IMG/VR virus record: IMGVR_UViG_3300005670_000014
Location: 24,786-88,785 of that record
Source of the DNA: a virus
Lineage: Duplodnaviria > Caudoviricetes
Length of the DNA: 64,000 nt
Reading direction: 5' to 3' (one strand)
This document shows, piece after piece, positions 38,148-61,009 of the stretch. The notes beneath the pieces were generated by a model, which saw only the letters and a program-made list of their open reading frames with translations, searched no databases and was not told where the DNA came from. The position numbers and the translations under genes were made by a program. How positions within the stretch are numbered: the first letter of the stretch is position 1; the number at the start of each line of letters is the position of its first letter.

Positions 38148-38155
38148 GTTTGATA

Positions 38156-38190
38156 GAGTGGGACTGCGAATTTTACAGTCCCACTCATTT
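38156..38190 (+). terminator. stem-loop after the capsid gene
   Basis: GAGTGGGACTG-cgaatttta-CAGTCCCACTC with a short T-run. Confidence 0.55.
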
Positions 38191-38203
38191 CCAAGGAGTT
38201 TTT

Positions 38204-38560: not shown

Positions 38561-38571
38561 GGATTTTTAGC

Positions 38572-40444: not shown

Positions 40445-40463
40445 CGATTGAGGAGTTTTTTTC

Positions 40464-41480
40464 ATGTCTACACCTAATGTTGAAAATTATACACTTGGCC
40501 GTGGGATGTTGTATTGGGATCCTTGGGATTCGACTAATTTGCGGTATGAAGGCGAACGTGCTTTAGGTAATGCTCCTGAAATTAGCATCAATATGAATGC
40601 GACGTTCTTGGATCATTATTCCAGCATGAGTGGTTTCAAATCGAAGGATAAGACTGTTGTTAATGAATTGGCTCCGCAGATTACATTTGCATTGGATGAG
40701 TTGGTTTCTGATAACTGGCAGATGCTAGTATTCGGTAACAAGACTGAAGTTAGTCAGAGTGCTGATGATTCGAATACGTTGGTTATTGCTTCTCCGTTGA
40801 AAGATCGTTATTATGATCTTGGTGCGCGGGCAATTGCCAGTACTCGTATTACTCATGGTACAGTTACGGGAGGTCCTTTCCAGGTTGGTGAGACTATTCG
40901 TAATGCTGCTGCTCCCAATAATGCTACTGCTGTTGTTGTAGAAGTGGGTGCGACTTGGTTGATCGTCAATACCGTTGCGGTTAATGGTACTGGAACAGCA
41001 TTTGCAGCGTCTGATACCTTGACTGGTGCTACAAGCTCTGCTACGGCTACTGCCAGTACTGGTGCGGTAGCGGTATCGGGATTGGTGTCGTTGAAGACCA
41101 CTTCCGGTTCTACTTACTATACTCCCACCACTGATTTTACTGTGGATGCGGTAAGTGGACGTATTTACTTTCCTTCGACCTCGACCATTGTTGAAGGCAC
41201 GAGCTTGACGGTTAATTTTGGCGTTGCTGCGACAACTTATAGCAAGATCACTGCGTTGACTGCGGTGGGCCAAGATGGTAAGATCCGGTACGTGTCCGAT
41301 AACCCAGTGGGCGGCTCGTATGAGATGATCATCTGGAAGGTGCGTATCAAGCCGAATGGTGATACTGCTCTGATCGGTGATGACTGGGCGCGGTTGCCGT
41401 TCCAAGGTGACATTCTGCGTGACGCCACGTACCACCCGACATCTCCTTATATGGATATGATCGTCGCCGACGCGGCGTAA
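40464..41480 (+). CDS. major tail (tube) protein with inserted beta domain
   Basis: ENYTLGRGMLY...LGNAPE...DHYSSMSGFKSKD, RYVSDNPVG, IWKVRIKPNGD; followed by a terminator. Confidence 0.85.
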   Translation: MSTPNVENYTLGRGMLYWDPWDSTNLRYEGERALGNAPEISINMNATFLDHYSSMSGFKSKDKTVVNELAPQITFALDELVSDNWQMLVFGNKTEVSQSADDSNTLVIASPLKDRYYDLGARAIASTRITHGTVTGGPFQVGETIRNAAAPNNATAVVVEVGATWLIVNTVAVNGTGTAFAASDTLTGATSSATATASTGAVAVSGLVSLKTTSGSTYYTPTTDFTVDAVSGRIYFPSTSTIVEGTSLTVNFGVAATTYSKITALTAVGQDGKIRYVSDNPVGGSYEMIIWKVRIKPNGDTALIGDDWARLPFQGDILRDATYHPTSPYMDMIVADAA

Positions 41481-41494
41481 TATCTTGTTGTAGT

Positions 41495-41523
41495 AAAAAG
41501 CCCGCCATCATAGCGGGCTTTTT
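41495..41523 (+). terminator. bidirectional intrinsic terminator
   Basis: AAAAAGCCCGC-catcata-GCGGGCTTTTT. Confidence 0.85.
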
Positions 41524-41597
41524 GTTGTTTAAAATATTTGCACCCGTTCGTAAAATTTGATAAGCTAGTTTTGAAACTCAAAACTTGGAGATGTTTC

Positions 41598-42032
41598 GTG
41601 GCTGACAAAGTAAAAAAACTATCGGAATCTGATTGGGAAATTCTTTTCCAAGCAACAGATTACAAAATTGGTTCCACTGTTTTAGAATTGACCCCATTGT
41701 CTTTAGCGTCTTTAGCACGGATTACTCGTCGTTTAACGGCGATTGTGGATAAAGTCAGTGTTTTAGAATTGAGTTTGGAATCTTTAGGATCAGATGCCAG
41801 TAAAATTATTTTATTGGTAGAATTGTTACTCACTGATTGTCCAGAAATTTTATCTGAATTATCGGGTTTAGATGTGAATGATGTTCAACGTTTGCCGTTA
41901 GATATTGCTGTTGAGTTGTTTAACGTGTGCGTCGATGTCAATTTACAATCCCAGGATAATTTAGTAAAAAACTTCAAGGGGTTGGGGGGGAAAGTAGCCA
42001 AGTTCATGAGCGGGACGAACACCGTTCAATAG
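41598..42032 (+). CDS. tail assembly chaperone (gpG-like)
   Basis: Between tube and TMP; GTG after GGAG; slippery A AAA AAC near the end. Confidence 0.8.
   Translation: MADKVKKLSESDWEILFQATDYKIGSTVLELTPLSLASLARITRRLTAIVDKVSVLELSLESLGSDASKIILLVELLLTDCPEILSELSGLDVNDVQRLPLDIAVELFNVCVDVNLQSQDNLVKNFKGLGGKVAKFMSGTNTVQ
41966..41972 (+). promoter_or_regulatory. -1 programmed frameshift slippery site A AAA AAC
   Basis: X XXY YYZ in the correct phase; the -1 frame is open into ORF 42038..42313. Confidence 0.75.
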
Positions 42033-42037
42033 GCGCA

Positions 42038-42313
42038 TTGATTCAGTTCTTAGTGGATCATGGACATGCATGGAAGGATGTCCAAGGCTACACCCTCAGC
42101 CAAGTGGGTATTTTTTTAAAGGAAGCATCAAAGTTGGATGAAACAAAACATAAGCATGATATTTTAGCGGCATGGTTAGGTTTTAATTTTGATCAAAAAG
42201 GATTGAAAAAGATCCTTGAAGAAAAAGTAATCAGTAAAAAACCCGAAGATCAGCATAAAGCACATGCTGAAAATTGGAATAAATTGTCGGCATTTGTTCG
42301 ACAAATGAGGTAG
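42038..42313 (+). CDS. gpT-like C-terminal part of the frameshifted chaperone
   Basis: -1 frame relative to the upstream ORF; FLVDHGH...GYTLSQV..FL pattern. Confidence 0.75.
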   Translation: MIQFLVDHGHAWKDVQGYTLSQVGIFLKEASKLDETKHKHDILAAWLGFNFDQKGLKKILEEKVISKKPEDQHKAHAENWNKLSAFVRQMR

Positions 42314-42318: not shown

Positions 42319-45300
42319 ATGGCTGTTCAAAACGAAATTATCAAATTACTGTTGCAGTTTGAAACAGCCTTTACGTCTCAAGATACGTTCAGTAATTTTG
42401 TTAAAAAAACTACTACAGAATTAAACAATCTTGATAGTAAGATAAAAGATAGTTCTGAAGAATTTAATAAACTTTTTAATGTTTTAAAACTTGGAAATTC
42501 GGGTGTTGTTCCTTTAAAGGAATTGTTTAAAGACTTATCGCAAGCTTCTGATGTAAAAGTAATTGTTGAAAATACAAAAATTCTTAAACAATCGATTGAA
42601 TCTCTTCAACAAGTTTTAGATAAAAAACTAAATATAACGAATTTAGAAACTTCGTTAGCTAAAATACAAGAAAAATTTATTCCATCAAAAGGGATTGGTG
42701 CTGAAAAATCTGCTGATTTTGCTGGTAAGTTTTTAAAGACTATTGAAGAACAATTTAAATCTTTTGCCAGTGGTTCAATGGATTTAAATACTTTTTTTGA
42801 TAATTTATTTCCAAAAGATATTACAGCTAAAGGAACTACTGCAAAAATTAAAGCAGAGTTAGCGAATCTCAAAAGTGAAGTTGAAAAAGGTATTACCGAT
42901 TTAACAAATTTAACAACTGAAAAACGAGTTGAAGTTCTTGAATTTATTAGTAAAAAAATTCTTGCTGATTCTACAAAACTTAGTGTAGCGGCTAATGCAG
43001 TAAAAGGTGATGGTAAACAATTAGTAGATGCCATTGTTAATATGGCAACATCACTTCAAGATATTGGATTTTTACCACCAAAAGACTTTTTTCCTAATTT
43101 TACACAAGGTTTAAAAGAACAAAGTGCTGTGCAAAAAGACGTTATTCGTAACGTACTTAAAGACTTAATGGCACAGTTTAATGTTGCTGGTTTTGAACTT
43201 GAGAAAAGTGATATTGCTTTTAAGTTGTTAGAACGTTTAGGATTTAATAAGAGCACACTTGAAGCACAGTTCAAAGAATTAAGTAGTACTGCTCAAAAAG
43301 AATTTGAAAAGTTTAATAGCAGTATACGACAAGCGATTGAATCTCCAAAAACTTTAAATTTAGATACATATGTAAAAGAATTTCAAAGTTTCATGACCAA
43401 TGCATTTAAAAATAATGCATTGGTCAGTTTTGGTGATGAATTCCAAGCACAGTTTAAAAAAGTTTCAACAGAATTAAATGGATTTACTAGAACTGCAACT
43501 CAAAGTTTGGGGGAAGTTAATAACTTTGAACAAGGAATTAAATCTTTAATTAATGCGTTAGATTCTGGAAAAGGTGCAGGTACTCCAGCATCTTTAGCAT
43601 TAAAAGAACTTTTAGAAACTTATTTACAAGTTGAAAAACAATTTCGATTTGATCAAGTATTAAAAACTCAAGAACAAGCGATTAGTGAATTTGATAAAAA
43701 ATTTAAAGAATTAACAAATACTTTAAAAAATAACCAACCTCCAGAATATTCTTTAAAATTAGTTACTAAGGCTAGTGCCGGTGATGAAGCGTTTAAAGAA
43801 CGTGAAGTGGCTTTAGCGACGTATAACACGTTACTGAAACAAACAACAGAAGAATTAGATCGTACTGCTCGTAGTATTGCGCATTTAGAAAATATTCAAA
43901 AATCAACTACTGCAACTGAAGATCAAAAAACATCTTTAAATAATTTAATTGATAGATATAAAACATATCAACAATCGTTAAGTGATGAAGCTAATATTTT
44001 AAGAAAAAATCAAGCAGATTGGGATGCTACTTGGTTAAGAAAAACGCAAGATTTAAGTCTTGCAGAAGAAAGAGTTAAAAACTTTTTTAAAGTTTTAAAT
44101 CAATCTTCTGATGCTGGCACGATTACCGGAACAACCGGTTATCTAAAAGGTCTTTTAGATATTGGTGTTAAATCTACTGAATCTGCTCAAGCTTTAGAAT
44201 CTGCTTTTAAAATCTTTAGTAATTTTGGTGGTGTTACTAAAGAATCTTTACAATACCTTGAGTTATTTGAAAAGGCCATTGGTTCATTATTTAAATCAAT
44301 GGGTCAAGGTGAAGGTAAGGTTACTTTAATTGATCTAAGCGGTTTAAAAGCTCAAGCTGACGGTACAGTTGTTGCAACTGAAACATTACGCAATAAACTC
44401 ATTAAATTAGCAGGTAGTTCTAAAGAAGCACAAGAAAATTTCCAAAATTTAGCATTTGCTAACGATTTTTTAGCAAAGACACAAGGTGCTGCTGACACAG
44501 CTTTCGGAAAACAAATTTCTGCATTATTTACATTAGCTCAAGCCGCTAAATTATATGTCAATAATATTGAAACTTTAATCTTAAAAAATGAACTCTATGA
44601 ACAAAACTTACGAAAGGTTCAAGCGGCTGAATTAGAAGTTAAAGAAAGTTTTAAAAAAGTACAAGATTCTCCTCAAGATCCTTCTGCTGTTAATGCATTG
44701 ACACAAGCGTATCAAAAATATACGAGAGAAATAGCTGCGGCTGAACTCAGACTTAAAGAATTAAAAAATCTTCAAACTGAACTGGCGACACAAAAAAACA
44801 CATTCGGTTTTACCGAAGCTGGTCAACAGTTACCCGGACTAGAAGCTGGAATTAGATCTACTACAGCTTTAATAGAACAATTAAAAAATAAAATTTTAGA
44901 TTTAAGAACTTCTGGTGGCGGTTCTAAAATTTTTGAAGATATTATTAGAGGTGTTGAACAGGGCAATCAACAATTAAAATCTTCATTCGATGCTCTCGAA
45001 AAAGATCTTTCTGGTCGCTTGTTGGCGATTACTGAAAAATTAAACACTAATTTATCAAAAGGTAGTATTGGTAAAGGTTTATTTAAGCAAATTCAAGGTG
45101 AAATTAGTAATTTATCTATTGCATTAAAAACAGTTAATGTTGATGGAGCTTTACAAGCTATCCAAGCACTGGTTGCTAAAATTCAAACGGCTTTAGATCC
45201 TAAAAATGTTCCTGTTAATAAAGAACTCGCTCAAACATATTTAGCTCCCATTAAAGAGTTGTTAAATGGTTTAGAAATTGCTCAAGGTGCTATTGCTAGA

Positions 45301-48300
45301 ATTATTCCTAAATTGGGTGAAGGACAAAAAGGGAAAGCTGAGGAACTTCTAAAAAATGTTCAAACTCAAATTATCGCTACGAATACAGCTTTAAATGATT
45401 TTGGTAAGAATGCGAATACCGCTCAGTTAACTACACGTTTTGAAGAAGCCAAACTGAAAGCTCGTGAACTCAATGCTGAGATTTCTCGACTCGGTAAAGG
45501 TTCATTTGATCAAACAAAGTACAATGATTTTGAACTTCGTTTACAAGGAATAAATAACCAATATAAAGCAATTAGTAAAGAAAATGAATCATTTGGTGCA
45601 GGTCTTAGAATTAGTGAACTGAATAATTTAATTGATACAGCTAGTCGCTCATTAAAAGATTTTGGCAAAACAACAAACTTTGATACTTTAAATAATCAAC
45701 TAATTGCATTAAGAGATAAGTTTCCTACATTAAATGCAGATATTGCTGATTTTGATAAACTGTTTAGAGAAGCTTTTGCAGGAACCAAAACAGCAATCAA
45801 TATTAAACCTTTGATTGATTTAAAAAATGAAGTCCAAGATGTTAAAAATAATTTAAAAAATCCAGCACAAGATACACTTTATACTACGTTATTAAGACAA
45901 CTAGATGCTTTAATTAACAAAACAACGATCTACAACGCTACTGTTAAAGCAGGTGCAAGTAAAGCAGATGTAGGTGTTCAAGCATTTATAGATCCTGCTG
46001 CTGTTAATGCTTCTAAAGCTAGTTTACAAGCTTTAGAAGCAGAATTAAATAATAATAAAATTGCTTTAGATACCTTTTTAAAATCCGGTAATCAAACAAA
46101 AGAAACAGCCACACAAATTGCAGAAGGTTTTAAAGTTACCGATAACAGTGTTAAAAGTTTAACTGCTGAAATTGGTTTATTATCAGGTGTTAGTTCAAAT
46201 CTTTTACATCACATTAATGCTTTAAAAGCGGAGGGTGCTGATGCTTCGGCTTTTGAAGCATTTAGAGCTTCCATTGAAGCAATTATTAAAACCAAAAAAG
46301 ATTTAGATACGCAATTTAAAGGTGGAAGTCTTACTGGAAAATTAAAAGAAGATTTAGATCGTTTAGTAGATGTTAAAGATGCGTTATCACAATTTAAAAC
46401 GGTAGGTGATAGTTTTAAGAGTGCTGCATTTTTTGAATCAACTTCATACAGTGCTCGTCAAGCGTTAGAGGAGATACAACGCTTAACATCTGCTATGCGA
46501 ACTGTTTCTAGCGATATTGGTAAAAGTTTATCGGTTAGTCGTACTGGACCCATTAATCCAGAAATTGAAAAAGAATTAAGAGCGCAACAAAAATTAGCAG
46601 ATGAAGCGATTATTAAATTGCGAGAAATGGGAGCCGTTTACTCCCAATTAAATTCCAAACCTAAGAATGAATCATTTCAACAATTAAAAGAAACGATAGA
46701 ACAAGCTTTCGGTGGTGGTGTTACTGGTTTACGGGCTTTTAGAACTGAATTTGATACATTAATCAGAGGTGTGAGTACATCTTCAGCATCTTTAATTAGT
46801 GGTGTTGCACCACTAACGGAAACTTTAATTAATAGTTTTAAACAACAATCTGAAAGTATTATAGCGACACGTACACAATATGAAGCATGGTTAAATTTAT
46901 TAAGAAGTGAAAAAGCAGCAGGTCAAAAAACATTTACATTACCTGATGGATCAACAAGATCTATTGATCGATTGATTACTGTTTTTCAGAATTTATTGGA
47001 TAAAGCTAATGCCGTTAAAGCTCCCATTGAAGCTGCGGCAACAACTTTAAAAGGTAAGTTAGACACGGCTGCAGGACAAGCTGAAGTTCGTATTGACAAA
47101 CTCGTTAATAAATTCACCCAGTTACAAGATCGAATTAATACATTAAATCCGGGAAGTTCGATCAATGAAATGTATGGCAGCATTAAAGAATTAATGATGC
47201 TGTTAGATCGTCCATATAAAACAGGTCCATTTTTTACTTTACCGAAAGAATCTTTTGCTCCAATTCGGAATGAACTTCAAAGTGTTTTAGAAGTTGCTAA
47301 AAATGTGCAAGCAGGTTTAGAATTTAATTTAACATCATTAACTAAAGGTTCGTTAGCGTACAAAGACACTCAAACCGCAATTAAAGCAGTTAGAGAGGAA
47401 GTTGAACGCTTAACAGCAGCATCACAAAAACTCTCTGAATTTGAAAAAAACGCATCTCACTTTTCTTCCTTACGTGGAAATCTTCATGGTGCATCAACCA
47501 CTTTATCAGAATTAGCGCATGAAGGGGCTTTTATTTATAAAGGTCTGAACGCATTATTTCAAAATATTGCTAAAAATATTGCTCCTAAATTAGATTTTGA
47601 TACCAGTGTTGTTACTGCAAAAATAAAAGAACTCAATGATCAATTTCGTGTAACAGGTACGGCGGCTGATATTCTTGAAAAGAAAATAAAAGAAGCATTA
47701 AATGCACAGATAGGAGGGGGTGGTTTAGCCGCAGCAAGAGAATATGAAAGAGCTTTTCAACAGTTAGAAGAAGCTTTTGTAAAATTCCGTTCGGGGTTAA
47801 CCCAAGCGGCAATGGGCTTCCAGATGTTAGGCGACAGTTTACTGGAACCATTCAAAAAAGCTAAAGAGGGATTTGAACAATTTTCCGATACCATGGGCGT
47901 TGTCAATGCGGTTTCAAACGCCACACAAGCCCAATTTAAAGCGTTAAAGGATCAAGCGCTGCTGATGGGAGCCACAACCCGCTTCACGGCTGAACAGGCC
48001 GCTGAGGGGCTTAAACAACTGGCTAAAGCAGGCTATACAGCAGAGGAACAAATTGCGTCATTACCCACAGTCATGCGTTTAGCACAAGCAGCAGCAACAG
48101 ATTTAGCAACTGCTGCTACTATAGCTACAGTAGTCATGAAAGAGTTTCGGATGGACCCGGATCAATTTAATGAAGCCGCAGATAAGATTACTTTGGCTGC
48201 GAATCGGACATTAGGAACTGTTGAAGATTTAGGTTATTCATTTAAGTATGTGGGTGCTCTTGCAGCGAACATTGGTGCAGATTTTGGTGATTTAACTGCG

Positions 48301-51300
48301 GCGATTGGTTTATTGCATAATGCAGGTTTGAAAGGAACTTTGGCCGGAACAGCTCTTCGTGGCATGTTAATGGCATTGTATAACCCCACTCGTGATGAAA
48401 CAAAACTCATTGCAGAGTTAGGTGAACGAATTGGTGGTTTGGGATTACAAATTCAAGATGCTTCGGGTAATTTTGTTGGTTATGGAAAAATTGTTAAGCA
48501 GTTAGAACAAGCGGGTATTACTACGGGTGAAGTTTTACGATTTTTTGGTCAACGTGCCGGGCCGGGTATGGCCGCATTATTGGCACAAGGTAGTGATGCA
48601 TTAAAGAATTTAGAAGATGATTTAAAAAATGCAGAAGGCACTACGGCTCACATGGCGGAGATCATGGAGCAGACGTTAAAAGGTCGATTATTGTTAATGC
48701 GGTCGGCTTTTGAAGCGTTATCAGATAGCATTGGTTATAATTTAGCGCCTACCTTATCATCAGCCGCGAATGTGATGGCTGATTTTGTGAGTCGTTTTGT
48801 AGCAATTCGTCAAGAATTTCCTGCATTAGCAACCGCAGTAGATCATGTATTAGCCGGTTTTGCATTACTTGCTAGTACTTTAGGTGGTTTAGCCGTTACT
48901 TTTGCATTTATCATTGTTCCCGTTCGTCAATTTATGGGGTTTTTAAAGACTTTACTAGTAACCACTTGGGCGGGTTCCGCAGCTATAGGATCTTTAAGTG
49001 CTGCAATGGCATTTAATGCAGCCGTTGTTACACGAACAAGTCTTGCTTTTGAAAGAGCAATGGTAGCAGAGTTAGCAAAAGTTGGAGCTACTGCTGCTGA
49101 TGCGACTGCTACACAAATTCATACTGCAATTACAGCGATTAATACAAAAGCTCTTTATGAACAAGCTGTTGCATATGAAACCGCTACTGCTGGTGCTCTT
49201 CATCATGCTACTGCACAAACAGGTCTTTGGGCTGGTATTAAAAATGCACTATCCATTGTGGGTGGTTTGTTGCGTGGTTTATTGGGATGGTGGGGTTTAG
49301 CATTGGGGGCTGTTGCTGCTTTAGTCACCTTTACTTTACTCCATAGTAAGTCGGTAGCCCAAACTAACATTGAGTTAGAAAAACAGAATCAACTTATTGA
49401 ATATAGCCGTAAAAGTACAGTTAATTTAAATAAAGAATTAATTAATACATCGGCACAGTTAAAACGGAATCAACAAGCGTTAGCTGATCTCAATAGTAAA
49501 GATAATCCGAAACGTGATTTAGTAGCACCTGAAAATCAAACAACTGCAAAAACGCAGTTGCAGTTAGATATTGATCAAAATAAGAAAGATTTACAAAGTC
49601 AGTTAAAACAACTCATCACTCAAATTACCGAATCTGGGTTTTTAAAAGATAAACTGGTATTGGATGTTGGTTTTGACAAAGATGGTAATTTTGATAAATT
49701 TAAAGTAAAAGTAGTAGAAAGTAATGAAGTGATTAATGTTTTAGAAAATGGTTTAACAGGTATTGCAACTACTGGAAACCGTGTCACCTCAGTTATCAAT
49801 GCATTAAGCAACGCTCAACAACAATATAACAAGCAGTTAGAACTTACTAACATCTTAAAAGAAAAGTTCAATACTTCTGAAACAGGGAGTTGGGAATCCA
49901 TCTTTGAAACACTTACGGATACATTTGAAAGTAACAGTGAAAAGATAAATAATTTATCTTCGAGATTAGTAGCATTAAATGTTATCTTAGAGAAGATAAA
50001 AACAGGAAAACCAATTCTTGAAAAAGACATTATTGATGCAAATTTAGATTTTGATATTGGATTTAAATTCGCTAAAAAATTTCAAAGTGAAGAAGAAACA
50101 CGAAGAGTTGTTCAAGAAAGATTTAATTCATTAACGAATGAAATTAGTAAATTATCTTTAGATCAACAAGTAACCATTGATACCGTTGTTAAAGCTTTTG
50201 TAGATAGAGCTGAAACTATTTTAGGACGTTCACAAACAGAAATTGCAACTGCGGTTAATCGAAATGATCTATTAAAGTTTTTTGTAGAAACTCAAAAAGG
50301 TCAAGCAAACTTATTACCTCAAACTGCTGAAGAACTTTTAAGAGCTTTAGATAATTATTATGAAACTTTGAAAAAAGGTTTGTCAGCTAAACAAATTGTG
50401 GGTTCAAACCTTAAAACACCTGTCATTGGTTTAGTCAATGCGACTAAAGATTTAGTTACTTATTTGGAAGCTACAAATAAAGAATTAAAAACAAAAATTG
50501 ATGAACAAAAGAAAATCTTTGATGAAGCTAAAGTAGTCGTAGATGCGGTTAAAGCATATCAAACGGCTATTGCCACAGCAGCTAAAGATACACTTGATGT
50601 AAGAAATCAAGAAATTGAATTTGAAGCTAACGTTAAAATAGAAAATTTAAATCAAAGTTTTGAAGATCAATTACGTAAACTGGAAAATGAAAATCGAGTT
50701 ATTGAATTACCATTCAAAGTTCAACTATTAACGGATGAAGCAGCACAAACTGGATTTAAAACACTCAGTAATTTATCTGCTTTGTTGTTAGATTACGAAC
50801 GTAAGAATACAACTGAATTTACTAAATTACAGATTGCAAATAGTCAATCTCAAGTTGATATTAAACTTAAAGAATTAGACGATAAACAAACGGCAACTGA
50901 TCAATACTATCAAACACTTAAAGGCCATTATTCGGTTGATAGTGCGGATTATTTAAAAGCACAACAAGATCAAGCTAGTGCAAATAAAGAAAATTTAGAT
51001 AATAAATTGCAAGCTGTCCAAGATCATTTAAAAAATCTATTAAAATTATATGAAGATAATGCTAATGCCATTATTGATCTTGAAAAACAAAAAATTAAAT
51101 TTGAATCACAAATCCAAGCAACAAGAGTTAAAGTAGGTAATGCTCAATTACTACCTTCTGAACAATTCGCTAAAGCGAAAGCAGATTTAGAAGATCTTGA
51201 TTCAGCTCTAAAGGCTGCAATTGAGACAAAAAACTGGGATGGTGCGATTGCGTATTTAACTGAACGTCAACGGATGGTTGATAATATTGCTTCAACTATT

Positions 51301-54300
51301 AGTTTAGAACCTGAATCACCAAAACAATCTGAAAAATTACAATTTAAGTTAGATGTTATAAGTATTGAAACTGAATTTAGAAAAGCTCAAATTACTATAG
51401 AAGATGCTGCTTTAGGTTTAGGTAGAAAAATATCTGAAATTCCTATCTTCAAACGTAATCTTGTTTTACAAAGTGGTTTGGTTCCTCAATTAGAAGATGG
51501 GAATGTTAACATTCGTAAAGCACTACAAACCGCAGCCGCAATTTTCGAACAAGAAAGTAAGGTGCTACAACAAAGAGCTGATGCTAATTTTAAAGGTGTT
51601 ATTGGAGGCTTTAATATTTTAAAGACTGCATCTTCAGATGTTCTAAAATTGTTTGATAAAACTGCAACTGAAGATTTACGGTTTGATTCTATGCAACGGA
51701 GTGTTGAAGCTTTTGGCGATATGATGGAAGATGCGTTAAATGTTCGTCCAGTTACTGATCTTATTAAAAATGTTGATGATCTACAAGCAAGTATCAAGCA
51801 AACTTCACAAGCACAAGATGGTTTGCGTGAAATAATGACAGGAAAAGTCAATATTCCATTACTGAGTAATATTAGTGAAACTGGCGAAACTGGGATAATA
51901 ACTCTTCGTAATATTAAAGGTGAATTACTTGCATTAAGTCTTCAAGCTTCTGGTAAAATTAAACCTTTAGAAGGTTTAACAACAGACATTCAAAAAGCTA
52001 AAGAAGAACTCACTGGATTTAAAGCATTAGTTGATACTCAAATTGATGAATTGACTCGTGGAAATGAAGTTGTAGAGTTACCTATTAGTTTTAAAACATC
52101 GGTTGATGCATTTAATACAACATCACTCGCAAAATACAGTGCTGAAGTTTTGACTTATGAAAAAAATCTAAATAAACAATTATTAGATTTACAACAAGGA
52201 CGTATTGAAGCCGATCTTGCAATGTCTGAAGAAGCTTATGCTACAAAGCGAGTTGAAACAGATAATTTTATTACTGTCATTAAATCTGCGTATCAAAAAC
52301 AATTGGGAAGTCAACAAGCTTGGTCAAAACAAGATTTAACAGAATATAAATCTATCTTACAAGATAAATATACGGATTATCAACAATTTTTACAAGATGA
52401 ATTAAGCGCGACAGAAACAGCATACCAATCTTTATACCAACTTCGTGAAAATTTATTAAATAAAAATGTTAGTTTAGAAAAACAATTTATTAACTTCGTA
52501 GCTAATTCAACAAAGAATTTTCAAGCGATTGATAATGTTGGTCGCTCAGATAGTGAAAAAGCATATTTAGCCCGTCAACAAAGTCTTAATTTACAAGCAG
52601 ATGCTGAAGCGGCTATTGCTCAAAAAGACTATGATCGGGCCAAAGCGTTGTTAGAACAACGTCAACAACTCATTGATGCAGCAGTTGGCAGTTTAAAACC
52701 AGAAGATACTATCAGTAAGTTCTTTTTAAAACAAGATCAAACCGAAGCAGTGGATGCGTATAAGCAAGTTATTGATGGATTAAAACAACAAAATACAACA
52801 GCGGCTCAAGAAATTGAAAGTCGTTTAAATACCGTTACTGATAAAATTACAGCATTACGTGATAGAATTAAAGATGCCAATATTATTTTACAAAATTTTG
52901 TAAAAGATTTACTTAAACTGCCCAGTAAGAAATTTCAAGTAGATGTAGATTTCGTAGTTGAACAAACAAATAAAACTGAAGATTTTTCTAATCAGATATT
53001 TCCAGGAGGTATTCAACAACGTAAAGAACAACAAGATGTTTTAAATGGAGCAATTCAAACGACTCGTAATCAACAAGAAGCATTGACTAAAACCTATAAA
53101 GAACAAGGTGGATTACTTCATGATTTAATTGCTACAATTAAAGAAAAACAACTTGTTAAAATTGGCATTGATCCTGAATCTTACGAAGAAGTTTTGGCTT
53201 ATGCTAAGTTTTATTTAGATTCGATGGATGTCATTAGTAAAGATAAATTAAACAATCAAGTAGCCAGAGTTAAACTTGCAGATCTTGAAAAACAGTTTGC
53301 AGAATTACAAAAATCAAAGCAAGCGGCTGAAGAATTAGAAAAGATTTTAACAACTGTTGCCGAACTTAGAACTAAACAAAAAGAATTAGGTGGTTTAAGT
53401 GGTTTAAGTAATACCTTTGATACAGCTATTACCAGTGCTAAAGCATTAAGTGACATTCTTACAAATACGAAAGGTCCGTTAGATGAGACTAAGCAAGCGG
53501 AAGTTAAAAAGCTGTTAGAAGAATTAAGAACTTCTAGTATTGGTTTTAAAGAAGCTCTTAAAGATGTACAAATTCCAGATGACCTTAAAGATGAAATTAA
53601 AGGTTTAATGGCAAGTTTTGTAATTAGTGATAAAGATATTATTGATCCAGAAAAATTAAATGTTTTTGGTCAACTGGCTGCAACTAATTTAGCGAAATTG
53701 GAGAAATATAAGCGAGATAATGATAAAGAAATTCAAGAAATTGCACAAAAAACAGCAACAGATACTGCTGGTGTTTTATTATCCAGTATTTTAGCAATTC
53801 GGGAAATTATTAAAACCAATATTTTAAATGTAGAAGTTAAAGATATAGATATTAAAACTGTTGAAAAACAGGTTAAAGATCAAGTTAAACTTTTAAATGA
53901 TGTTGTCAATAATATTGAAACAGGTGGTAATGTTGAACAAATCAAAGAAATCGGACCTCTAAAAGATTTATTAAAAGAAATTGATCTTATCTTAAAGAGT
54001 TCACAAACAACTGAAGAAAAGATTAATAATTTAAAAACGGCAAATGTCAAGCTGGAAGCTGCGGCAGTTGCATATAAAAAGCAACAAGAAGAGGCTGCAA
54101 AACAACAGCAAGCTAATGCGGAAACACAAGTTCAACAATCTAAAGTATTAGTTGCCAATCAACAAGCTCAAAGTAAGGCTGCTCAAGATACGGTACAATC
54201 ACAAGAATCCATAGCACAAGCCGCGAATGACACGGCTGATGCATGGGCAAAAGCAACACCAAACGAACAATCTCAAGTATTAACTAATATTCAAGATATT

Positions 54301-56307
54301 ATCGATGAAATTAGTCAAGCTGGTTTACAGTTAGTTAAACCAGAAGATCAAAAACAAATTTCTAGTTTGTTTGATCAATTAAAGAATGCTCAAACTAAGT
54401 TAAGTCAAGCTTTCGAATCGGGTGATACCGCAGCTATTACTCAAGCCATTACTGAGATTAAAGAATTAGGTATTCAATTTAAGAATACTGCTGGACTAAG
54501 TGAAGTTGCCCGTCAAAAATTTGGTGAATTAGCTAACATTCCGTCGTTTGATGTAGCTATCAAAGTTAATACATCAAGTATACCTCCAGCTAAACAAGCC
54601 GTAGCGGAATTACAAGCAACCACTCAAAAAGATACTTCAGTGACAATGTCTACTGAAGAAGTTACTTTAGCTGTTAATAAATTAAAAGATGTTGAAAATG
54701 AAATTACCAAATTAAAAGGATTAAGTGCTGTTGAGTTTAAAGGTTACACCAATGTAGATGTTGAAAAAAGTAAACAAGAGTTAGAAGCGTTTGCTCAACG
54801 AGCCAAAGCATTATTGGAAGTTCCCATTTCCGCCCGTGATGAAGAATTTAAAACTAAACTAAGAGCGTTGTTTATCGATTATGATCAATTTAGATCTCAA
54901 TTACAACCCATTAAAATTGAAGGTGATGTGAGTGGATTCAACAACACATATCAAAAAGCTTTAAGTACGCTACAGAATCTTCGTGATCAAGCAAAACTTG
55001 TGGGAGCTACGGAACAAGCACAAAAATATAGTAAGATTTTAAATGAGTTACTTCAAGCAAGATTGGACATTCAATCCAATGACATTAATATTCGAACCCA
55101 AGGTTATGAGAAACTTAAAACTCTTATTAATGGCACTAAAGAACTTGATAAAGTTCTGACTGAAGCTGATAAAAAGTCATTGAATGTTGAAATGACTACA
55201 ATTGGTAAAGACGTTGTAGTGTCGGATTTGCAGAGTGTTCAAAATGAGTTAAATAATACTGCTAATAAAGCACAGTCTATGCAGAATGTGCTCAGTAAAA
55301 TTGGCACTAGTTTAAATACTGTTGGAACCGTACCTGGATTAGAATCTCCTGCTCAAGAATTTGAACGTCTGAATACGACACTTACTGAAACAAAAGAGCG
55401 TTTTAAAGAGGCTTTTGCTAAAGGTGATTTAAATACGGCTGCTATTGATGCGTATAAAACCCGCATTTTGAACTTGATTGATCAGATTACCAAAATTAAA
55501 GGTGTTACACCAGACCTGCAAAAGGCTCTTCGTGATGGATTAGATGTAGAATTAAAAGATTATATATTTAAAGCGACTCCAGAAATACAAGAACCAAAAA
55601 GAGCTGATCCAATCCCTGTTGAATTGGCTCCAGAACCATTAAAAGTAACACCTCCAGATCCAGTTACCGTACCTTTAACACCACAAACTGACTGGACAAC
55701 AATACCGGAGCCACCTCCGGTTACAATAACGTCTTTAGTAGATTCAGCTTTATCAGGAATTTATTCTGTTATTAAGGCTTTAAGTGAATTACCTTATTCA
55801 CGAACCATTGTAATTAATACTGAATATCGCACATCTGGATCTCCACCTACTCAAAATGCTAATAAAGGGGGTTTGATTAGTGGGTTACAGTATTTCGCAA
55901 ATGGTGGATTAGCTAAATTTAAAGAATTAGCTTCTCAATTTGTACCGGGTGCTGGAGATACAGATACGGTTCCGGCGATGCTCACTCCCGGTGAGTTTGT
56001 CATCAAAAAAGATCGAGTTAAAGATCTTGGTGTTGGCTTTTTAAATGCATTGAATGATGGTTTGATTCAATTTAAATCTGCTGGTGGAATGATTTATAAT
56101 TCGCCCATCAACACTTTAAATTCAATGTCAGCGTTTATAAAACCCAATTTTCAAATACCACAACAAGTTCAATCAGCAGGTGGACCCCCCATTGATATTA
56201 ACTTGACAATTAAGGATAAAACATTTAATATCAAAACACCACGAGATGAGGCTAAAAAATTAGTATCTGCTTTACAATATTTAGAACGTGGCATTACTAA
56301 AAAGTGA
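42319..56307 (+). CDS. very large tape measure protein, 4662 aa
   Basis: Follows the chaperones; TP901-type core near aa 1845 (VNAVSNAT...LMGATTRFTAEQAAEGLKQLAKAG); C-terminal FANGG...GAGDTDTVPAMLTPGEFVI. Confidence 0.93.
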   Translation: MAVQNEIIKLLLQFETAFTSQDTFSNFVKKTTTELNNLDSKIKDSSEEFNKLFNVLKLGNSGVVPLKELFKDLSQASDVKVIVENTKILKQSIESLQQVLDKKLNITNLETSLAKIQEKFIPSKGIGAEKSADFAGKFLKTIEEQFKSFASGSMDLNTFFDNLFPKDITAKGTTAKIKAELANLKSEVEKGITDLTNLTTEKRVEVLEFISKKILADSTKLSVAANAVKGDGKQLVDAIVNMATSLQDIGFLPPKDFFPNFTQGLKEQSAVQKDVIRNVLKDLMAQFNVAGFELEKSDIAFKLLERLGFNKSTLEAQFKELSSTAQKEFEKFNSSIRQAIESPKTLNLDTYVKEFQSFMTNAFKNNALVSFGDEFQAQFKKVSTELNGFTRTATQSLGEVNNFEQGIKSLINALDSGKGAGTPASLALKELLETYLQVEKQFRFDQVLKTQEQAISEFDKKFKELTNTLKNNQPPEYSLKLVTKASAGDEAFKEREVALATYNTLLKQTTEELDRTARSIAHLENIQKSTTATEDQKTSLNNLIDRYKTYQQSLSDEANILRKNQADWDATWLRKTQDLSLAEERVKNFFKVLNQSSDAGTITGTTGYLKGLLDIGVKSTESAQALESAFKIFSNFGGVTKESLQYLELFEKAIGSLFKSMGQGEGKVTLIDLSGLKAQADGTVVATETLRNKLIKLAGSSKEAQENFQNLAFANDFLAKTQGAADTAFGKQISALFTLAQAAKLYVNNIETLILKNELYEQNLRKVQAAELEVKESFKKVQDSPQDPSAVNALTQAYQKYTREIAAAELRLKELKNLQTELATQKNTFGFTEAGQQLPGLEAGIRSTTALIEQLKNKILDLRTSGGGSKIFEDIIRGVEQGNQQLKSSFDALEKDLSGRLLAITEKLNTNLSKGSIGKGLFKQIQGEISNLSIALKTVNVDGALQAIQALVAKIQTALDPKNVPVNKELAQTYLAPIKELLNGLEIAQGAIARIIPKLGEGQKGKAEELLKNVQTQIIATNTALNDFGKNANTAQLTTRFEEAKLKARELNAEISRLGKGSFDQTKYNDFELRLQGINNQYKAISKENESFGAGLRISELNNLIDTASRSLKDFGKTTNFDTLNNQLIALRDKFPTLNADIADFDKLFREAFAGTKTAINIKPLIDLKNEVQDVKNNLKNPAQDTLYTTLLRQLDALINKTTIYNATVKAGASKADVGVQAFIDPAAVNASKASLQALEAELNNNKIALDTFLKSGNQTKETATQIAEGFKVTDNSVKSLTAEIGLLSGVSSNLLHHINALKAEGADASAFEAFRASIEAIIKTKKDLDTQFKGGSLTGKLKEDLDRLVDVKDALSQFKTVGDSFKSAAFFESTSYSARQALEEIQRLTSAMRTVSSDIGKSLSVSRTGPINPEIEKELRAQQKLADEAIIKLREMGAVYSQLNSKPKNESFQQLKETIEQAFGGGVTGLRAFRTEFDTLIRGVSTSSASLISGVAPLTETLINSFKQQSESIIATRTQYEAWLNLLRSEKAAGQKTFTLPDGSTRSIDRLITVFQNLLDKANAVKAPIEAAATTLKGKLDTAAGQAEVRIDKLVNKFTQLQDRINTLNPGSSINEMYGSIKELMMLLDRPYKTGPFFTLPKESFAPIRNELQSVLEVAKNVQAGLEFNLTSLTKGSLAYKDTQTAIKAVREEVERLTAASQKLSEFEKNASHFSSLRGNLHGASTTLSELAHEGAFIYKGLNALFQNIAKNIAPKLDFDTSVVTAKIKELNDQFRVTGTAADILEKKIKEALNAQIGGGGLAAAREYERAFQQLEEAFVKFRSGLTQAAMGFQMLGDSLLEPFKKAKEGFEQFSDTMGVVNAVSNATQAQFKALKDQALLMGATTRFTAEQAAEGLKQLAKAGYTAEEQIASLPTVMRLAQAAATDLATAATIATVVMKEFRMDPDQFNEAADKITLAANRTLGTVEDLGYSFKYVGALAANIGADFGDLTAAIGLLHNAGLKGTLAGTALRGMLMALYNPTRDETKLIAELGERIGGLGLQIQDASGNFVGYGKIVKQLEQAGITTGEVLRFFGQRAGPGMAALLAQGSDALKNLEDDLKNAEGTTAHMAEIMEQTLKGRLLLMRSAFEALSDSIGYNLAPTLSSAANVMADFVSRFVAIRQEFPALATAVDHVLAGFALLASTLGGLAVTFAFIIVPVRQFMGFLKTLLVTTWAGSAAIGSLSAAMAFNAAVVTRTSLAFERAMVAELAKVGATAADATATQIHTAITAINTKALYEQAVAYETATAGALHHATAQTGLWAGIKNALSIVGGLLRGLLGWWGLALGAVAALVTFTLLHSKSVAQTNIELEKQNQLIEYSRKSTVNLNKELINTSAQLKRNQQALADLNSKDNPKRDLVAPENQTTAKTQLQLDIDQNKKDLQSQLKQLITQITESGFLKDKLVLDVGFDKDGNFDKFKVKVVESNEVINVLENGLTGIATTGNRVTSVINALSNAQQQYNKQLELTNILKEKFNTSETGSWESIFETLTDTFESNSEKINNLSSRLVALNVILEKIKTGKPILEKDIIDANLDFDIGFKFAKKFQSEEETRRVVQERFNSLTNEISKLSLDQQVTIDTVVKAFVDRAETILGRSQTEIATAVNRNDLLKFFVETQKGQANLLPQTAEELLRALDNYYETLKKGLSAKQIVGSNLKTPVIGLVNATKDLVTYLEATNKELKTKIDEQKKIFDEAKVVVDAVKAYQTAIATAAKDTLDVRNQEIEFEANVKIENLNQSFEDQLRKLENENRVIELPFKVQLLTDEAAQTGFKTLSNLSALLLDYERKNTTEFTKLQIANSQSQVDIKLKELDDKQTATDQYYQTLKGHYSVDSADYLKAQQDQASANKENLDNKLQAVQDHLKNLLKLYEDNANAIIDLEKQKIKFESQIQATRVKVGNAQLLPSEQFAKAKADLEDLDSALKAAIETKNWDGAIAYLTERQRMVDNIASTISLEPESPKQSEKLQFKLDVISIETEFRKAQITIEDAALGLGRKISEIPIFKRNLVLQSGLVPQLEDGNVNIRKALQTAAAIFEQESKVLQQRADANFKGVIGGFNILKTASSDVLKLFDKTATEDLRFDSMQRSVEAFGDMMEDALNVRPVTDLIKNVDDLQASIKQTSQAQDGLREIMTGKVNIPLLSNISETGETGIITLRNIKGELLALSLQASGKIKPLEGLTTDIQKAKEELTGFKALVDTQIDELTRGNEVVELPISFKTSVDAFNTTSLAKYSAEVLTYEKNLNKQLLDLQQGRIEADLAMSEEAYATKRVETDNFITVIKSAYQKQLGSQQAWSKQDLTEYKSILQDKYTDYQQFLQDELSATETAYQSLYQLRENLLNKNVSLEKQFINFVANSTKNFQAIDNVGRSDSEKAYLARQQSLNLQADAEAAIAQKDYDRAKALLEQRQQLIDAAVGSLKPEDTISKFFLKQDQTEAVDAYKQVIDGLKQQNTTAAQEIESRLNTVTDKITALRDRIKDANIILQNFVKDLLKLPSKKFQVDVDFVVEQTNKTEDFSNQIFPGGIQQRKEQQDVLNGAIQTTRNQQEALTKTYKEQGGLLHDLIATIKEKQLVKIGIDPESYEEVLAYAKFYLDSMDVISKDKLNNQVARVKLADLEKQFAELQKSKQAAEELEKILTTVAELRTKQKELGGLSGLSNTFDTAITSAKALSDILTNTKGPLDETKQAEVKKLLEELRTSSIGFKEALKDVQIPDDLKDEIKGLMASFVISDKDIIDPEKLNVFGQLAATNLAKLEKYKRDNDKEIQEIAQKTATDTAGVLLSSILAIREIIKTNILNVEVKDIDIKTVEKQVKDQVKLLNDVVNNIETGGNVEQIKEIGPLKDLLKEIDLILKSSQTTEEKINNLKTANVKLEAAAVAYKKQQEEAAKQQQANAETQVQQSKVLVANQQAQSKAAQDTVQSQESIAQAANDTADAWAKATPNEQSQVLTNIQDIIDEISQAGLQLVKPEDQKQISSLFDQLKNAQTKLSQAFESGDTAAITQAITEIKELGIQFKNTAGLSEVARQKFGELANIPSFDVAIKVNTSSIPPAKQAVAELQATTQKDTSVTMSTEEVTLAVNKLKDVENEITKLKGLSAVEFKGYTNVDVEKSKQELEAFAQRAKALLEVPISARDEEFKTKLRALFIDYDQFRSQLQPIKIEGDVSGFNNTYQKALSTLQNLRDQAKLVGATEQAQKYSKILNELLQARLDIQSNDINIRTQGYEKLKTLINGTKELDKVLTEADKKSLNVEMTTIGKDVVVSDLQSVQNELNNTANKAQSMQNVLSKIGTSLNTVGTVPGLESPAQEFERLNTTLTETKERFKEAFAKGDLNTAAIDAYKTRILNLIDQITKIKGVTPDLQKALRDGLDVELKDYIFKATPEIQEPKRADPIPVELAPEPLKVTPPDPVTVPLTPQTDWTTIPEPPPVTITSLVDSALSGIYSVIKALSELPYSRTIVINTEYRTSGSPPTQNANKGGLISGLQYFANGGLAKFKELASQFVPGAGDTDTVPAMLTPGEFVIKKDRVKDLGVGFLNALNDGLIQFKSAGGMIYNSPINTLNSMSAFIKPNFQIPQQVQSAGGPPIDINLTIKDKTFNIKTPRDEAKKLVSALQYLERGITKK

Positions 56308-56311
56308 TCTT

Positions 56312-56704
56312 ATGCAAATCGTGTCTTTAGGTTCAGTGACATTTAATGATATTGTGGAACAAGGTCTTTATATTGATGAAGAGCATAAATGGCTTCCTGT
56401 AGGTCAATCTATTCGTTACGCATTAGCTGGAAATCCAGTCATTATCGAAAATGCTAGATCTGGAAAACCTTTAACATTAATTGCACAAGAAGATCGTGGT
56501 TGGGTTACTAAAGCAACTTTATTAGAATTAAAAACATTAGCTTCTTTAGTCAACACCACACATGTATTGACTTTAGTGAATGATAGCAATGTCACTGAAA
56601 CTAGAAATGTACGATTTAAACGAGATAATTATCCGTTAGATTTAAATCCTTTAGATTCTGCACATAATTATTATGTTGGATCTATTCATTTAATTCAAGT
56701 TTAG
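56312..56704 (+). CDS. distal tail-like protein
   Basis: First gene after TMP; W.PV.Q...ALAG....SGKPLTL...RGW pattern. Confidence 0.7.
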   Translation: MQIVSLGSVTFNDIVEQGLYIDEEHKWLPVGQSIRYALAGNPVIIENARSGKPLTLIAQEDRGWVTKATLLELKTLASLVNTTHVLTLVNDSNVTETRNVRFKRDNYPLDLNPLDSAHNYYVGSIHLIQV

Positions 56705-56715
56705 AGAGAAATGTA

Positions 56716-57696
56716 ATGGCGATTACTGGCAGTGAACTGAATTATTATCAATCGAAGGTCGTCAACGACACAGCTTCGAATGGTGGGCGAATTTCCACTA
56801 CCTTAGTGGTCTCGGGAACTTCGAATACCTGGTGGCCCAACATTACCGAAGCGCAACTCACTTCGGGGGTCACTCAATGGCGAAAAGGCTTTGTACGAGT
56901 CGATAATGCCGCCAATGAAGTCGCCTCCAACCTTCGTGTGGGTTTGTGGCGTCCGACTCCTGGCAGTGATGAACTGTATTTGGCCGAAGGATCGCAAACC
57001 AATATTCAATCGGCGTTTGGTACTCCCGACCTGTACGGTTGTGGATCGTTGGATACTTCGGTACTCACCGGCGCAAATTCATTCGATGTGTTGGTAGAAG
57101 ATGGTGCGGTCATTCTGTTTCGGGATAACGAGTTGATTCGCATTTCGAGTGAGACTGCACTCGGTACGGGAACGGCTGAGATTCATACGATCAATGGCAC
57201 TCCCAGTATTTCGGGGGATGTGGTCACGATCACCATTGATGGCACGTTGGCGAACGATTATTCGGATACCAACACCTACGTCAGTTCGTTGATTGAAGCC
57301 ACGAACGTCACTGGAACCACGACCGGCAAGGTGGTGACGAGTACCGCCGGAACGTTTGCCGAAGCCTCCATGGTGGTGGGCAATCTCGGATCGATCTATC
57401 AAGTGTTGACCTTCACTTTCACCAGTGCGACAGCCTTCACGGTGACGAGTGATGAAGGCATTACCTTGGCTGGCGGGACGATCAGCAGTACCTATGCCCC
57501 AACGAATATGAGTGTGGGCGCGAGTTACTTCTCGGTGCCTCCTGCGTGTTGGGGTGGAACGTTTGCCGCAGCCGATACCGTCATCATTACCACGATCCCT
57601 CCTTGTGTACCCATTCTGGAGAAGCGAGTGGTGCCTGCTGGATCGGCTGCGATCAGTACCCAAGCCCGTGGTTTGATGTTCTTCGTCGAGTCATAA
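56716..57696 (+). CDS. tail-tip structural protein
   Basis: SKVVNDTASNGGRIS...WWPNI...G..QWRKGF; T/S/G-rich beta composition. Confidence 0.75.
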   Translation: MAITGSELNYYQSKVVNDTASNGGRISTTLVVSGTSNTWWPNITEAQLTSGVTQWRKGFVRVDNAANEVASNLRVGLWRPTPGSDELYLAEGSQTNIQSAFGTPDLYGCGSLDTSVLTGANSFDVLVEDGAVILFRDNELIRISSETALGTGTAEIHTINGTPSISGDVVTITIDGTLANDYSDTNTYVSSLIEATNVTGTTTGKVVTSTAGTFAEASMVVGNLGSIYQVLTFTFTSATAFTVTSDEGITLAGGTISSTYAPTNMSVGASYFSVPPACWGGTFAAADTVIITTIPPCVPILEKRVVPAGSAAISTQARGLMFFVES

Positions 57697-57697
57697 G

Positions 57698-58804
57698 ATG
57701 GCTGAAAAGCTTGTTGCTACACTGAATATTCCCTTCTCCGGCGATGGCGACGGAGTGGGGGATGATGCGGGCAAGAATAAGATTGTTTTGCAGCAGATGA
57801 CAACGCGCCTGGACTCGAAAGGTCAGTTGAGGGCGCGGTGCTTCCCCTCCAGTGGAGTGAAGTTCACCGCCAGTGTCGGGACGGTGACGCCTGGGGAAGT
57901 GCGCAGTCAATCGTTCAGTGAAGGACTGAAGTTCTCAAACAGTGCGAAGGCCAACTTGAAGTATCCAGGCGCTTCTGGAGTCACGATAGATACTGCCGCT
58001 TCGGTCTTGATGAAGAAAACCAAGGATATTTACGGACACACCACGATTGTTCCCGCCAGCGTCTCGTTAACCTATGATGCGGATCAAGGTGCTGTGATCG
58101 CGATGAGTGGAGGAGTCGAAACACCGATTTATGGCGCGTGCTTTGTTCGTTATTCAGCCTTGTATCAAATGCTGTATTACAAGCCGTATTCATTGACCAT
58201 TCCCGTGGGTGGCGGTAGCAATGCAATCTCGTATCATGTGGGAACGATCTTCGGTTATAACGATTATACGGTTGAAACGCTCGACCTGGAGTTGGATATT
58301 AGTTCGTCTCCCGATTGGGTAGAGTATGCACGAGTCACTTCCAAGATCGTATTGGATGCGAAGGGCGTATGGGAGTTTCCGCCGAATTGGGAAAGCACCT
58401 ATCAAGGTAATAAAGATAAAGTCGGTGATCGACGAGAGGATTATTCAGAACCTGGTAAATTTTCTGGATTTTCTTCAGAGATTGATCAAGATAATTCATT
58501 TGTCGATACGCGAATTCATTGTGTGGTGGAAGTGAATACCATCGGCACCTTGCGATTCAATGATCATAACAATGGCGGTTCCGGTTATTGGGCATGGTAT
58601 GCACCGTATTTTGGCTCTTCCTCCTGGAATCCAAAATATGAAGTAAAATTTTCTGATCCTCCGGGAGGCAAGAAAGCGAACAGTACCCAAGATTTTCAAT
58701 ACGATCTCAACCACTCGACGTGGCGGGATGTGTTTCTCAGTATCAATAAAACCGAAGTGATTGAAGACTTGCAAAACGATTATCCTGGAGTGGTTGAAGC
58801 ATGA
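57698..58804 (+). CDS. tail-tip structural protein
   Basis: ORF track; coupled within the tail operon. Confidence 0.75.
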   Translation: MAEKLVATLNIPFSGDGDGVGDDAGKNKIVLQQMTTRLDSKGQLRARCFPSSGVKFTASVGTVTPGEVRSQSFSEGLKFSNSAKANLKYPGASGVTIDTAASVLMKKTKDIYGHTTIVPASVSLTYDADQGAVIAMSGGVETPIYGACFVRYSALYQMLYYKPYSLTIPVGGGSNAISYHVGTIFGYNDYTVETLDLELDISSSPDWVEYARVTSKIVLDAKGVWEFPPNWESTYQGNKDKVGDRREDYSEPGKFSGFSSEIDQDNSFVDTRIHCVVEVNTIGTLRFNDHNNGGSGYWAWYAPYFGSSSWNPKYEVKFSDPPGGKKANSTQDFQYDLNHSTWRDVFLSINKTEVIEDLQNDYPGVVEA

Positions 58805-60996: not shown

Positions 60997-61009
60997 TGGA
61001 GAAATTATT

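Follow-up and report, generated by a model that had tools for sequence, protein, structure and literature searches.

The 64,000-nucleotide stretch of viral DNA analyzed here, hereafter the window, is the final 64 kb of a linear 88,785-bp record (IMG/VR IMGVR_UViG_3300005670_000014, positions 24,786 to 88,785) whose completeness is estimated at 68%. It carries a single giant open reading frame (ORF) at 42319..56307 on the + strand, which opens with an ATG start preceded by a GAGG Shine-Dalgarno site, encodes a protein of 4,662 amino acids (aa) designated P0001, and makes up 15.8% of the 88.8-kb record. We propose, at a probability of roughly 0.8, that this protein is a functional tape measure protein, complete in length, from an uncultured siphovirus, that it serves as an assembly ruler for a tail of about 0.6 to 0.75 μm, and that it contains no fused enzyme. 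Judged by its core, its position, and its domain matches, the protein is a genuine member of the TP901 family of tape measure proteins, set within what reads as a siphovirus-type tail module.

Core, arms, and termini

The identity of the protein is evidenced foremost by its core, which spans aa 1855 to 2184 (47881..48870, + strand). Here the TIGR01760 model, tape_meas_TP901, matches with an E value of 2e-61 and a score of 208 bits against a cutoff of 28.8. PF10145 matches at aa 1878 to 2065 (E = 3.5e-40; 138.5 bits against a cutoff of 33.2), and 13 PHROG tape measure families match over a span of about aa 1619 to 2958. An earlier note, made by a model from the DNA letters and their translations, had placed the start of a TP901-type core near aa 1845, in good agreement with the starts of both models. 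Two hydrophobic segments follow the core, as identified by Kyte-Doolittle hydropathy with a 19-residue window and a threshold of 1.6. The first, at aa 2167 to 2215 (48817..48963, + strand), peaks at 2.23 and contains many columns that are invariant across the family; the second, at aa 2318 to 2342 (49270..49344, + strand), likewise exceeds 1.6.

On either side of this center lie two very long arms. The N-terminal arm comprises aa 1 to 1854 (42319..47880, + strand), and the C-terminal arm comprises aa 2343 to 4420 (49345..55578, + strand). Lys, Glu, Gln, and Leu abound in both, and Gly and Pro are scarce; the whole protein has no cysteine, 16 histidines, and 12 tryptophans. AlphaFold2 models of 2,400 residues, built from a 10-sequence family alignment, support the helical flanks that the earlier note had described: aa 1 to 1200 are 80% helix with no strands (pLDDT 67.5), and aa 2461 to 3660 are 82% helix with almost no strand and with helices of up to 96 residues (pLDDT 52).

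The two ends of the chain are conserved. At the C-terminal end, a proline-rich linker whose length differs between relatives (aa 4421 to 4472, 29% Pro; 55579..55734, + strand) leads into a domain at aa 4473 to 4662 (55735..56304, + strand) that is marked by dense invariant columns and by 37 to 93% identity across the wider clade. This domain gave a weak lead toward the C-terminus of lambda-type tape measure proteins. At the other end, the tip motif MAxxxE-I/V-I/L-xLxLxF/VxT is conserved clade-wide, also in members whose arm is otherwise too diverged to be recognized, and because of this persistence the tip fits a functional chain end.

Domain, motif, and fold searches for embedded enzymes, which the earlier note had raised as something to look for, found none. 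Searches of the protein with Pfam- and TIGRFAM-type models detected no enzyme, peptidase, or other extra domain, and neither a DxDxD nor an HExxH motif occurs anywhere in its sequence. A Foldseek comparison of the N-arm model (aa 1 to 1200) with the PDB recovered generic alpha solenoids only, at TM-scores below 0.1, and no polymerase; the fold with two double-psi beta-barrels was not seen in that model, which has no beta-strands. A HMMER search with aa 1 to 1200 against 1.84 billion representative proteins yielded five matches, all of them collinear members of the same family, and the N arm is therefore best described as family-specific helical sequence with no recognizable enzyme. Because the arms lack cysteine, an enzyme domain, and both the DxDxD and the HExxH motif, the N arm would not be an RNA polymerase, unlike the corresponding region in Thermus phage P23-45.

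Relatives, repeats, and base composition

A word-indexed search of proteins from ENA, Logan, and JGI assemblies placed the window protein in a family of similarly large proteins. Near homologues from at least eight independent assemblies measure 4,552 to 5,141 aa, share 54 to 97% identity, and are collinear with the window protein (100% collinear in several). With intein-like inserts removed, the near family measures 4,552 to 4,889 aa, and the homologues of 5,027 and 5,141 aa owe 351 residues each to such an insert. Block lengths across the near family are near-constant to the residue (599/600/500/540/220/320/460/460/300/440), block identity swings from 30% to 99% in a mosaic pattern, and indels are few and small (e.g., 22 events totaling 53 aa over 1,700 aa at 42% identity). 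Conservation in register extends over the start, the core, the hydrophobic segments, and the C-terminus of the homologues, and at two relative loci fetched as DNA, the gene order matches that of the window.

A more distant group, at 3,699 to 4,289 aa and 33 to 34% identity, keeps the length of the N arm (about 1,700 to 1,730 aa) and has a C arm that is shorter by 400 to 1,000 aa. A second search based on the core returned 31 proteins of 2,629 to 6,944 aa. Among the proteins that have the C-terminal domain of the window protein, the start of the core ranges between aa 808 and aa 2783 and the part after the core measures 1,483 to 2,688 aa; the lengths before and after the core are uncorrelated (r = 0.13), with extremes of 808/1,492 and 2,783/1,620 aa. 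The spread of N-arm lengths in the wider clade, 808 to 2,783 aa, is what would be expected of a ruler segment. The architecture, a deep-set core behind a long helical N arm, is new for a known kind of protein and common to an uncultured clade.

Some members of the clade display features of their own. A 351-aa intein-like insert interrupts the core of P0002 (aa 2008 to 2358; L005:7085-8137) and of P0007 (aa 2015 to 2365). It starts with Cys and ends with GN, Thr being the next residue, and the empty site in the window protein is G2006/T2007, near nucleotides 48336/48337. Interruptions of the core, with additional cysteines, also occur in P0018, P0027, P0029, and P0030. The insert has no match to a Pfam Hint domain, and its matches to inteins in the PDB are weak (E of about 0.06); tape measure inteins have been reported in actinobacteriophages (bioRxiv 10.1101/2025.01.02.630785). 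P0002 is 97 to 99% identical to the window protein before the block that holds the insertion site, 89% identical in that block (aa 1700 to 2240), and about 50% identical beyond it, a pattern that suggests a recombination boundary near the insertion site. P0015 (1,714 aa) and P0016 (780 aa) align collinearly with the N arm, beginning at residue 1; they are probably cut at contig ends and less probably represent a split form of the gene.

Hidden repeats were another feature that the earlier note had proposed to check. Neither tandem nor long direct repeats, of a kind to inflate an assembly, occur at the DNA level in the gene at 42319-56307, and plain self-BLAST of the whole protein gave the identity match only. 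Chunked BLAST, by contrast, revealed a protein-level duplication in the C arm, where aa 2784 to 2999 match aa 3241 to 3462 at 26% identity (blastp, E = 3e-11). Profile self-comparison with hhalign resolved a module of ~457 aa in at least two copies, with a score of 178 versus a maximum of 80 for the reversed-sequence control. Copy 1 occupies aa 2784 to 3240 (50668..52038, + strand), copy 2 occupies aa 3241 to 3700 (52039..53418, + strand), and a weaker third copy may follow. The duplication is ancient, and the deletions of the shortest relative amount to the loss of about one such module; growth of the C arm by module duplication and loss is thus shown. Candidate repeats in the N arm were dismissed, because their self-similarity scores of 94 to 110 lie too close to the control maximum to be reliable; that the N arm, too, grew by accretion is something we infer from its variable length in the clade. 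The earlier note's proposal of accretion around an ordinary core consequently holds in part: the C-arm duplication and the varying arm lengths favor it, and the GC contrast is no evidence for it.

That contrast itself is real. GC content is 0.42 to 0.44 at 47.6 to 49.4 kb versus 0.29 to 0.35 on either side, confirming the impression by eye that the core is more GC-rich than its flanks. The core has 15 to 19% Ala and 8 to 11% Gly, a composition that pushes up GC at the first and second codon positions. We compared codon use in 42319-56307 with that of the genes at 31185-41480 and 56716-63669. At four-fold sites, GC at the third codon position (GC3) is 0.163 in the N arm, 0.273 in the core, and 0.20 in the C arm, compared to 0.40 in the other late genes and 0.31 in the middle genes. 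The outliers are thus the arms, not the core, and the whole tape measure gene is AT-shifted relative to its neighbors. A foreign origin of the GC-rich core was ruled out by this codon-class analysis, given the Ala and Gly content of the core and the AT-rich codons of the arms. Weak codon selection, together with AT-biased drift in sequence constrained mainly for helix and length, may account for the shift. Codon usage forms a sharp within-genome gradient at the tape measure gene.

Predicted tail length and competing readings

In TP901-1, a deletion of 347 aa from the tape measure protein takes the tail from 118 nm down to 65 nm, equivalent to 0.153 nm per aa, and about 127 residues do not count toward length (PMC5099701); ruler scaling is also treated elsewhere (PMC9022992). 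By TP901-1 scaling, the window protein would specify a tail of about 680 to 700 nm, or 606 to 746 nm at 0.13 to 0.16 nm per aa, with about 165 to 175 rings. The deletions agree with the value of about 0.15 nm per residue from which the earlier note had predicted an extreme tail. Most siphovirus tails measure 50 to 200 nm (PMC10034513).

Whether the tail would be among the longest of any phage, as the earlier note had it, depends on the comparison. The claim stands against cultured phages and is weakened by public metagenome proteins. P0033 to P0036, from public protein collections, share the PF10145 core and extreme length; since they reach 5,801 to 6,944 aa, the window protein at 4,662 aa is extreme and not the longest on record. 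They differ from it in that the core lies at aa ~170 to 500 and in lacking both the C-terminal domain and the N arm of the window clade. Their core being so near the N-terminus, their extra length is all C-terminal. P0036 also has a DnaJ domain (PF00226), and NCBI labels P0033 a phage tape measure protein in a Cyanobacteriota metagenome-assembled genome (MAG).

In the established scheme of tail assembly, the C-terminus of the tape measure protein sits at the tip initiator, chaperones coat the chain, rings replace them up to the N-terminus, and the tail is capped (PMC9022992, PMC5099701); the N-terminus of the TP901-1 protein meets the tail terminator or connector (PMC5099701). By homology to lambda and TP901-1, the C-terminal domain of the window protein would dock in the tail-tip initiator, and the G/GT chaperones would coat the extended chain. 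Tube rings would then replace the chaperones and polymerize along the protein up to its N-terminal tip, after which the tail would be capped. At infection, the protein would be expelled, and its central hydrophobic segments may help to form a membrane channel for DNA. The extra length would represent helical sequence flanking the core on either side, derived partly from ancient module duplication, and not a fused enzyme.

Several observations weigh against a full-length ruler. The length of the tail is an extrapolation from the protein, and only about 68% of the genome is present in the contig. Confidence in the AlphaFold2 models is moderate to low (pLDDT 67.5 and 52), and models of a monomer are silent on extension inside a tube. 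In the distant subgroup, moreover, all of the change in length falls in the C arm, the N arm remaining at ~1,730 aa; such constancy may mark the N arm as a separate module that plays a part of its own. Finally, the known precedent of 5,002 aa has an N-terminal enzyme that is not part of a ruler (PMC10770324).

These last points bear on what we consider an unlikely alternative, namely, that the N-terminal ~1,850 aa are a cargo or effector module or are processed off, so that a tail of about 0.37 to 0.45 μm would be built from ~2,800 aa. The precedent is gp96 of P23-45, with an active RNA polymerase in its N-terminal ~1,200 aa (PMC10770324), and the near-constant ~1,700 to 1,730 aa of the distant subgroup, set against a C arm that varies by 400 to 1,000 aa, would suit such a module. 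The N arm also has no homologue outside the family, and hence its function is unreadable from relatives. Yet an arm that is modeled as all-helical and strandless, that has no DxDxD, HExxH, or Cys (and belongs to a protein with 16 His in all), and that draws no domain match and only generic solenoids from Foldseek bears little resemblance to an enzyme. Its span of 808 to 2,783 aa across the wider clade is likewise unlike that of a fixed enzyme, and its tip motif is conserved like an ordinary tape measure N-terminus. Even in P23-45, the polymerase domain remains within the full-size virion protein. A reading of the ORF as an assembly chimera or as an artificial fusion of two or more genes, with which the earlier note had hedged its prediction, carries next to no probability. 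It would draw on the single metagenome-derived contig and on the shifts in base composition along the gene; however, those shifts are accounted for by amino acid content and codon bias, the gene is free of DNA repeats, and start, core, hydrophobic segments, and C-terminus keep a conserved register. We ruled it out on the grounds that at least eight independent ENA, Logan, and JGI assemblies give collinear full-length proteins with only small indels.

It is quite improbable, too, that the chain folds back inside the lumen of the tube, so that the two arms run side by side and one end is formed by the core and hydrophobic region, which would yield a tail of ~0.3 to 0.35 μm. The core does lie near the middle, the arms are alike in size (1,854 versus about 2,080 aa), and their profiles show marginal similarity to each other (score 94). 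However, that score barely exceeds the reversed-sequence control, which reaches 80, and the uncorrelated arm lengths across the clade (r = 0.13) are not those of paired strands. Solved siphovirus tails, for their part, contain a trimeric rod in the lumen, which also counts against folding back. The ruler of full length is the reading that we favor. A further, speculative reading has low odds: the helical N arm, which occurs only in this uncultured clade, would do more than measure length passively, in that after ejection the N and C arms would flank the membrane-inserting center and build either a scaffold inside the cell or a very long conduit through the envelope. If this were true, about 0.5 MDa of helical protein per chain would be delivered into or across an unusually thick host envelope, and the extreme tail would be a by-product of the amount of protein delivered.

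Tail module, known systems, and implications

The genes around the giant ORF follow a familiar order. TerL, portal, protease, and major capsid genes are followed by four small ORFs, the tube gene, two small ORFs (frames 0 and -1), the giant ORF, and then unassigned genes. The tape measure gene therein lies 3' of the tube gene and the chaperone pair, in an order identical to that in two relative loci, L002 and L003. The sheath family PF04984 has zero matches across the whole 88.8-kb record, which is ~68% complete and was not searched with other sheath models; there is no PHROG sheath match either, and the longest ORF between the capsid and tube genes is no more than 245 aa. The earlier note's reading of a single ORF in the canonical slot of a sheathless tail module is in keeping with the gene order, the tube gene, and, at the sequence level, the G/GT-type genes. 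At the head of this series, the large terminase ORF (31185-33884) encodes 899 aa, with the terminase match confined to aa 444 to 856 and just one weak helicase-like PHROG match (aa 113 to 341) in the N-terminal ~440 aa.

The major tail (tube) protein (40464..41480, + strand) has 338 aa and a C-terminal Ig-like domain, as evidenced by a match to phrog_807, "major tail protein with Ig-like domain" (E = 3e-45); its residues 7 to 122 resemble the YSD1_22 major tail protein (PDB 6xgr) and the "Tail Tube" of 8vhx (E = 1e-26). Immediately 3' of this gene, a terminator-like hairpin with a U-run can be read from the sequence (41497..41527, + strand). A consensus terminator scan does not list it, although RNA folding supports the hairpin (-17.9 kcal/mol; z = -5.2 versus shuffles). 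It may reduce the expression of the few-copy chaperone and tape measure proteins relative to that of the ~1,000-copy tube protein.

The next ORF (41598..42032, + strand), which has a GTG start with a GGAG Shine-Dalgarno site 7 nucleotides upstream, is called tail assembly chaperone G from its position and frame; the candidate has zero family matches. Near its end lies a slippery heptamer for -1 frameshifting, G GGG GGG, followed by AAAG (41984..41990, + strand). The slip-site 11-mer, GGGGGGGAAAG, occurs once in the window and in 0 of 100 shuffles. It is identical and in the same place in locus L005, and the L002 variant, GGGGGGC, still fits X_XXY_YYZ. The -1 frame extension, the T part of G-T (41990..42313, + strand; listed ORF 42038-42313), is open from the slip site to 42313, and the corresponding reading past the slip site is likewise open in L002. 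Together, the two small ORFs and the slip site are the classical G/GT chaperone arrangement, with a predicted frameshift.

Downstream, four genes encoding 138, 326, 368, and 731 aa (56288..60996, + strand) are presumed tail-tip genes from their position and are syntenic in L002. They match PHROG families of unknown function only and have no Pfam or PDB match except for a weak, fibritin-like coiled-coil one, so that the "distal tail" label given to them by the earlier note is borne out by position and not by family identity. The fibritin-like match belongs to the 326-aa product. A GC-rich island at 56600-58700 (GC 0.51 to 0.54, GC3 0.49 to 0.57) covers the 326-aa and 368-aa genes directly past the AT-rich tape measure gene, and it could be an exchanged fiber or tip module.

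Comparison with known systems underlines what is ordinary and what is unusual here. The TP901-1 protein (937 aa, 118-nm tail) is like the window protein in its TIGR01760/PF10145 core, its helical repeats, a hydrophobic region directly after the core, and a gene that comes after the tube and chaperone genes. The window protein is five times longer, and its first hydrophobic region lies at aa 2167 to 2215 instead of aa 390 to 460 (PMC5099701); therefore, about 1,770 extra residues stand before this region and about 2,000 after it. An 11/18-residue Trp/Phe repeat array of the TP901-1 kind is not evident; the protein has only 12 Trp and shows no power at period 11. The best solved relative is PDB 9g8s chain w, "Tail tape measure" (1,424 aa, three chains), whose residues 244 to 634 align with aa 1848 to 2238 (E = 5.6e-31). 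It differs in having one third of the length and a core ~240 residues from the N-terminus, as opposed to ~1,850. With Salmonella phage YSD1, a siphovirus, the window shares the tube domain and the C-terminal Ig-like decoration of YSD1_22; in everything else that was compared, the two phages are unrelated. The tail of YSD1 is of ordinary length, about 0.2 μm.

The only characterized tape measure protein of comparable size is gp96 of Thermus phages P23-45 and P74-26, a protein of 5,002 aa that belongs to tails of >800 nm to almost 1 μm, described as the "longest known" (PMC10770324, PMC10034513, PMC9022992). Its N-terminal ~1,200 aa form a two-barrel RNA polymerase with a DFDGD motif, and it also has a metallopeptidase domain (PMC10770324). 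Both are giant siphovirus tape measure proteins that contain transmembrane segments and in which a long N-terminal region precedes the ruler part, but the window protein has no RNA polymerase, no metallopeptidase, no DxDxD or HExxH motif, and, in the model of aa 1 to 1200, no such fold. No sequence relationship to gp96 was detected, and gp96 was not among the matches of the PDB search. The tubes differ too: that of P74-26 is made of a fused two-domain subunit in trimeric rings, whereas the window tube protein is of the single-domain YSD1 type with an Ig-like domain.

Host searches returned no prophage relatives in 185,579 species genomes, no tRNA genes in the window, and no cultured phage relatives above about 35% identity for the tape measure core, capsid, or terminase. 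Matches to Microcystis phages and to one Cyanobacteriota-MAG protein of a different family were rejected as a basis for a host call because their identity is too low. The earlier note's idea that such a tail might serve to cross a sheath, capsule, or S-layer is thus speculative.

The practical value of the finding is modest and lies in improved annotation of giant ORFs in viral metagenomes. For phage biology, the clade would represent a second ultra-long-tail lineage, independent of the Thermus phages, with a purely helical ruler and an ordinary single-domain, YSD1-type tube. It would thereby pull apart two ideas that are confounded in P74-26, namely, that a fused, trimeric tube subunit is required for a very long tail and that an enzyme is concealed in a giant tape measure protein. 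The clade would also constitute a natural ruler series, from 2,629 to about 5,000 aa and with the core at varied depth, in which to test whether residues on both sides of the core count equally toward tail length.

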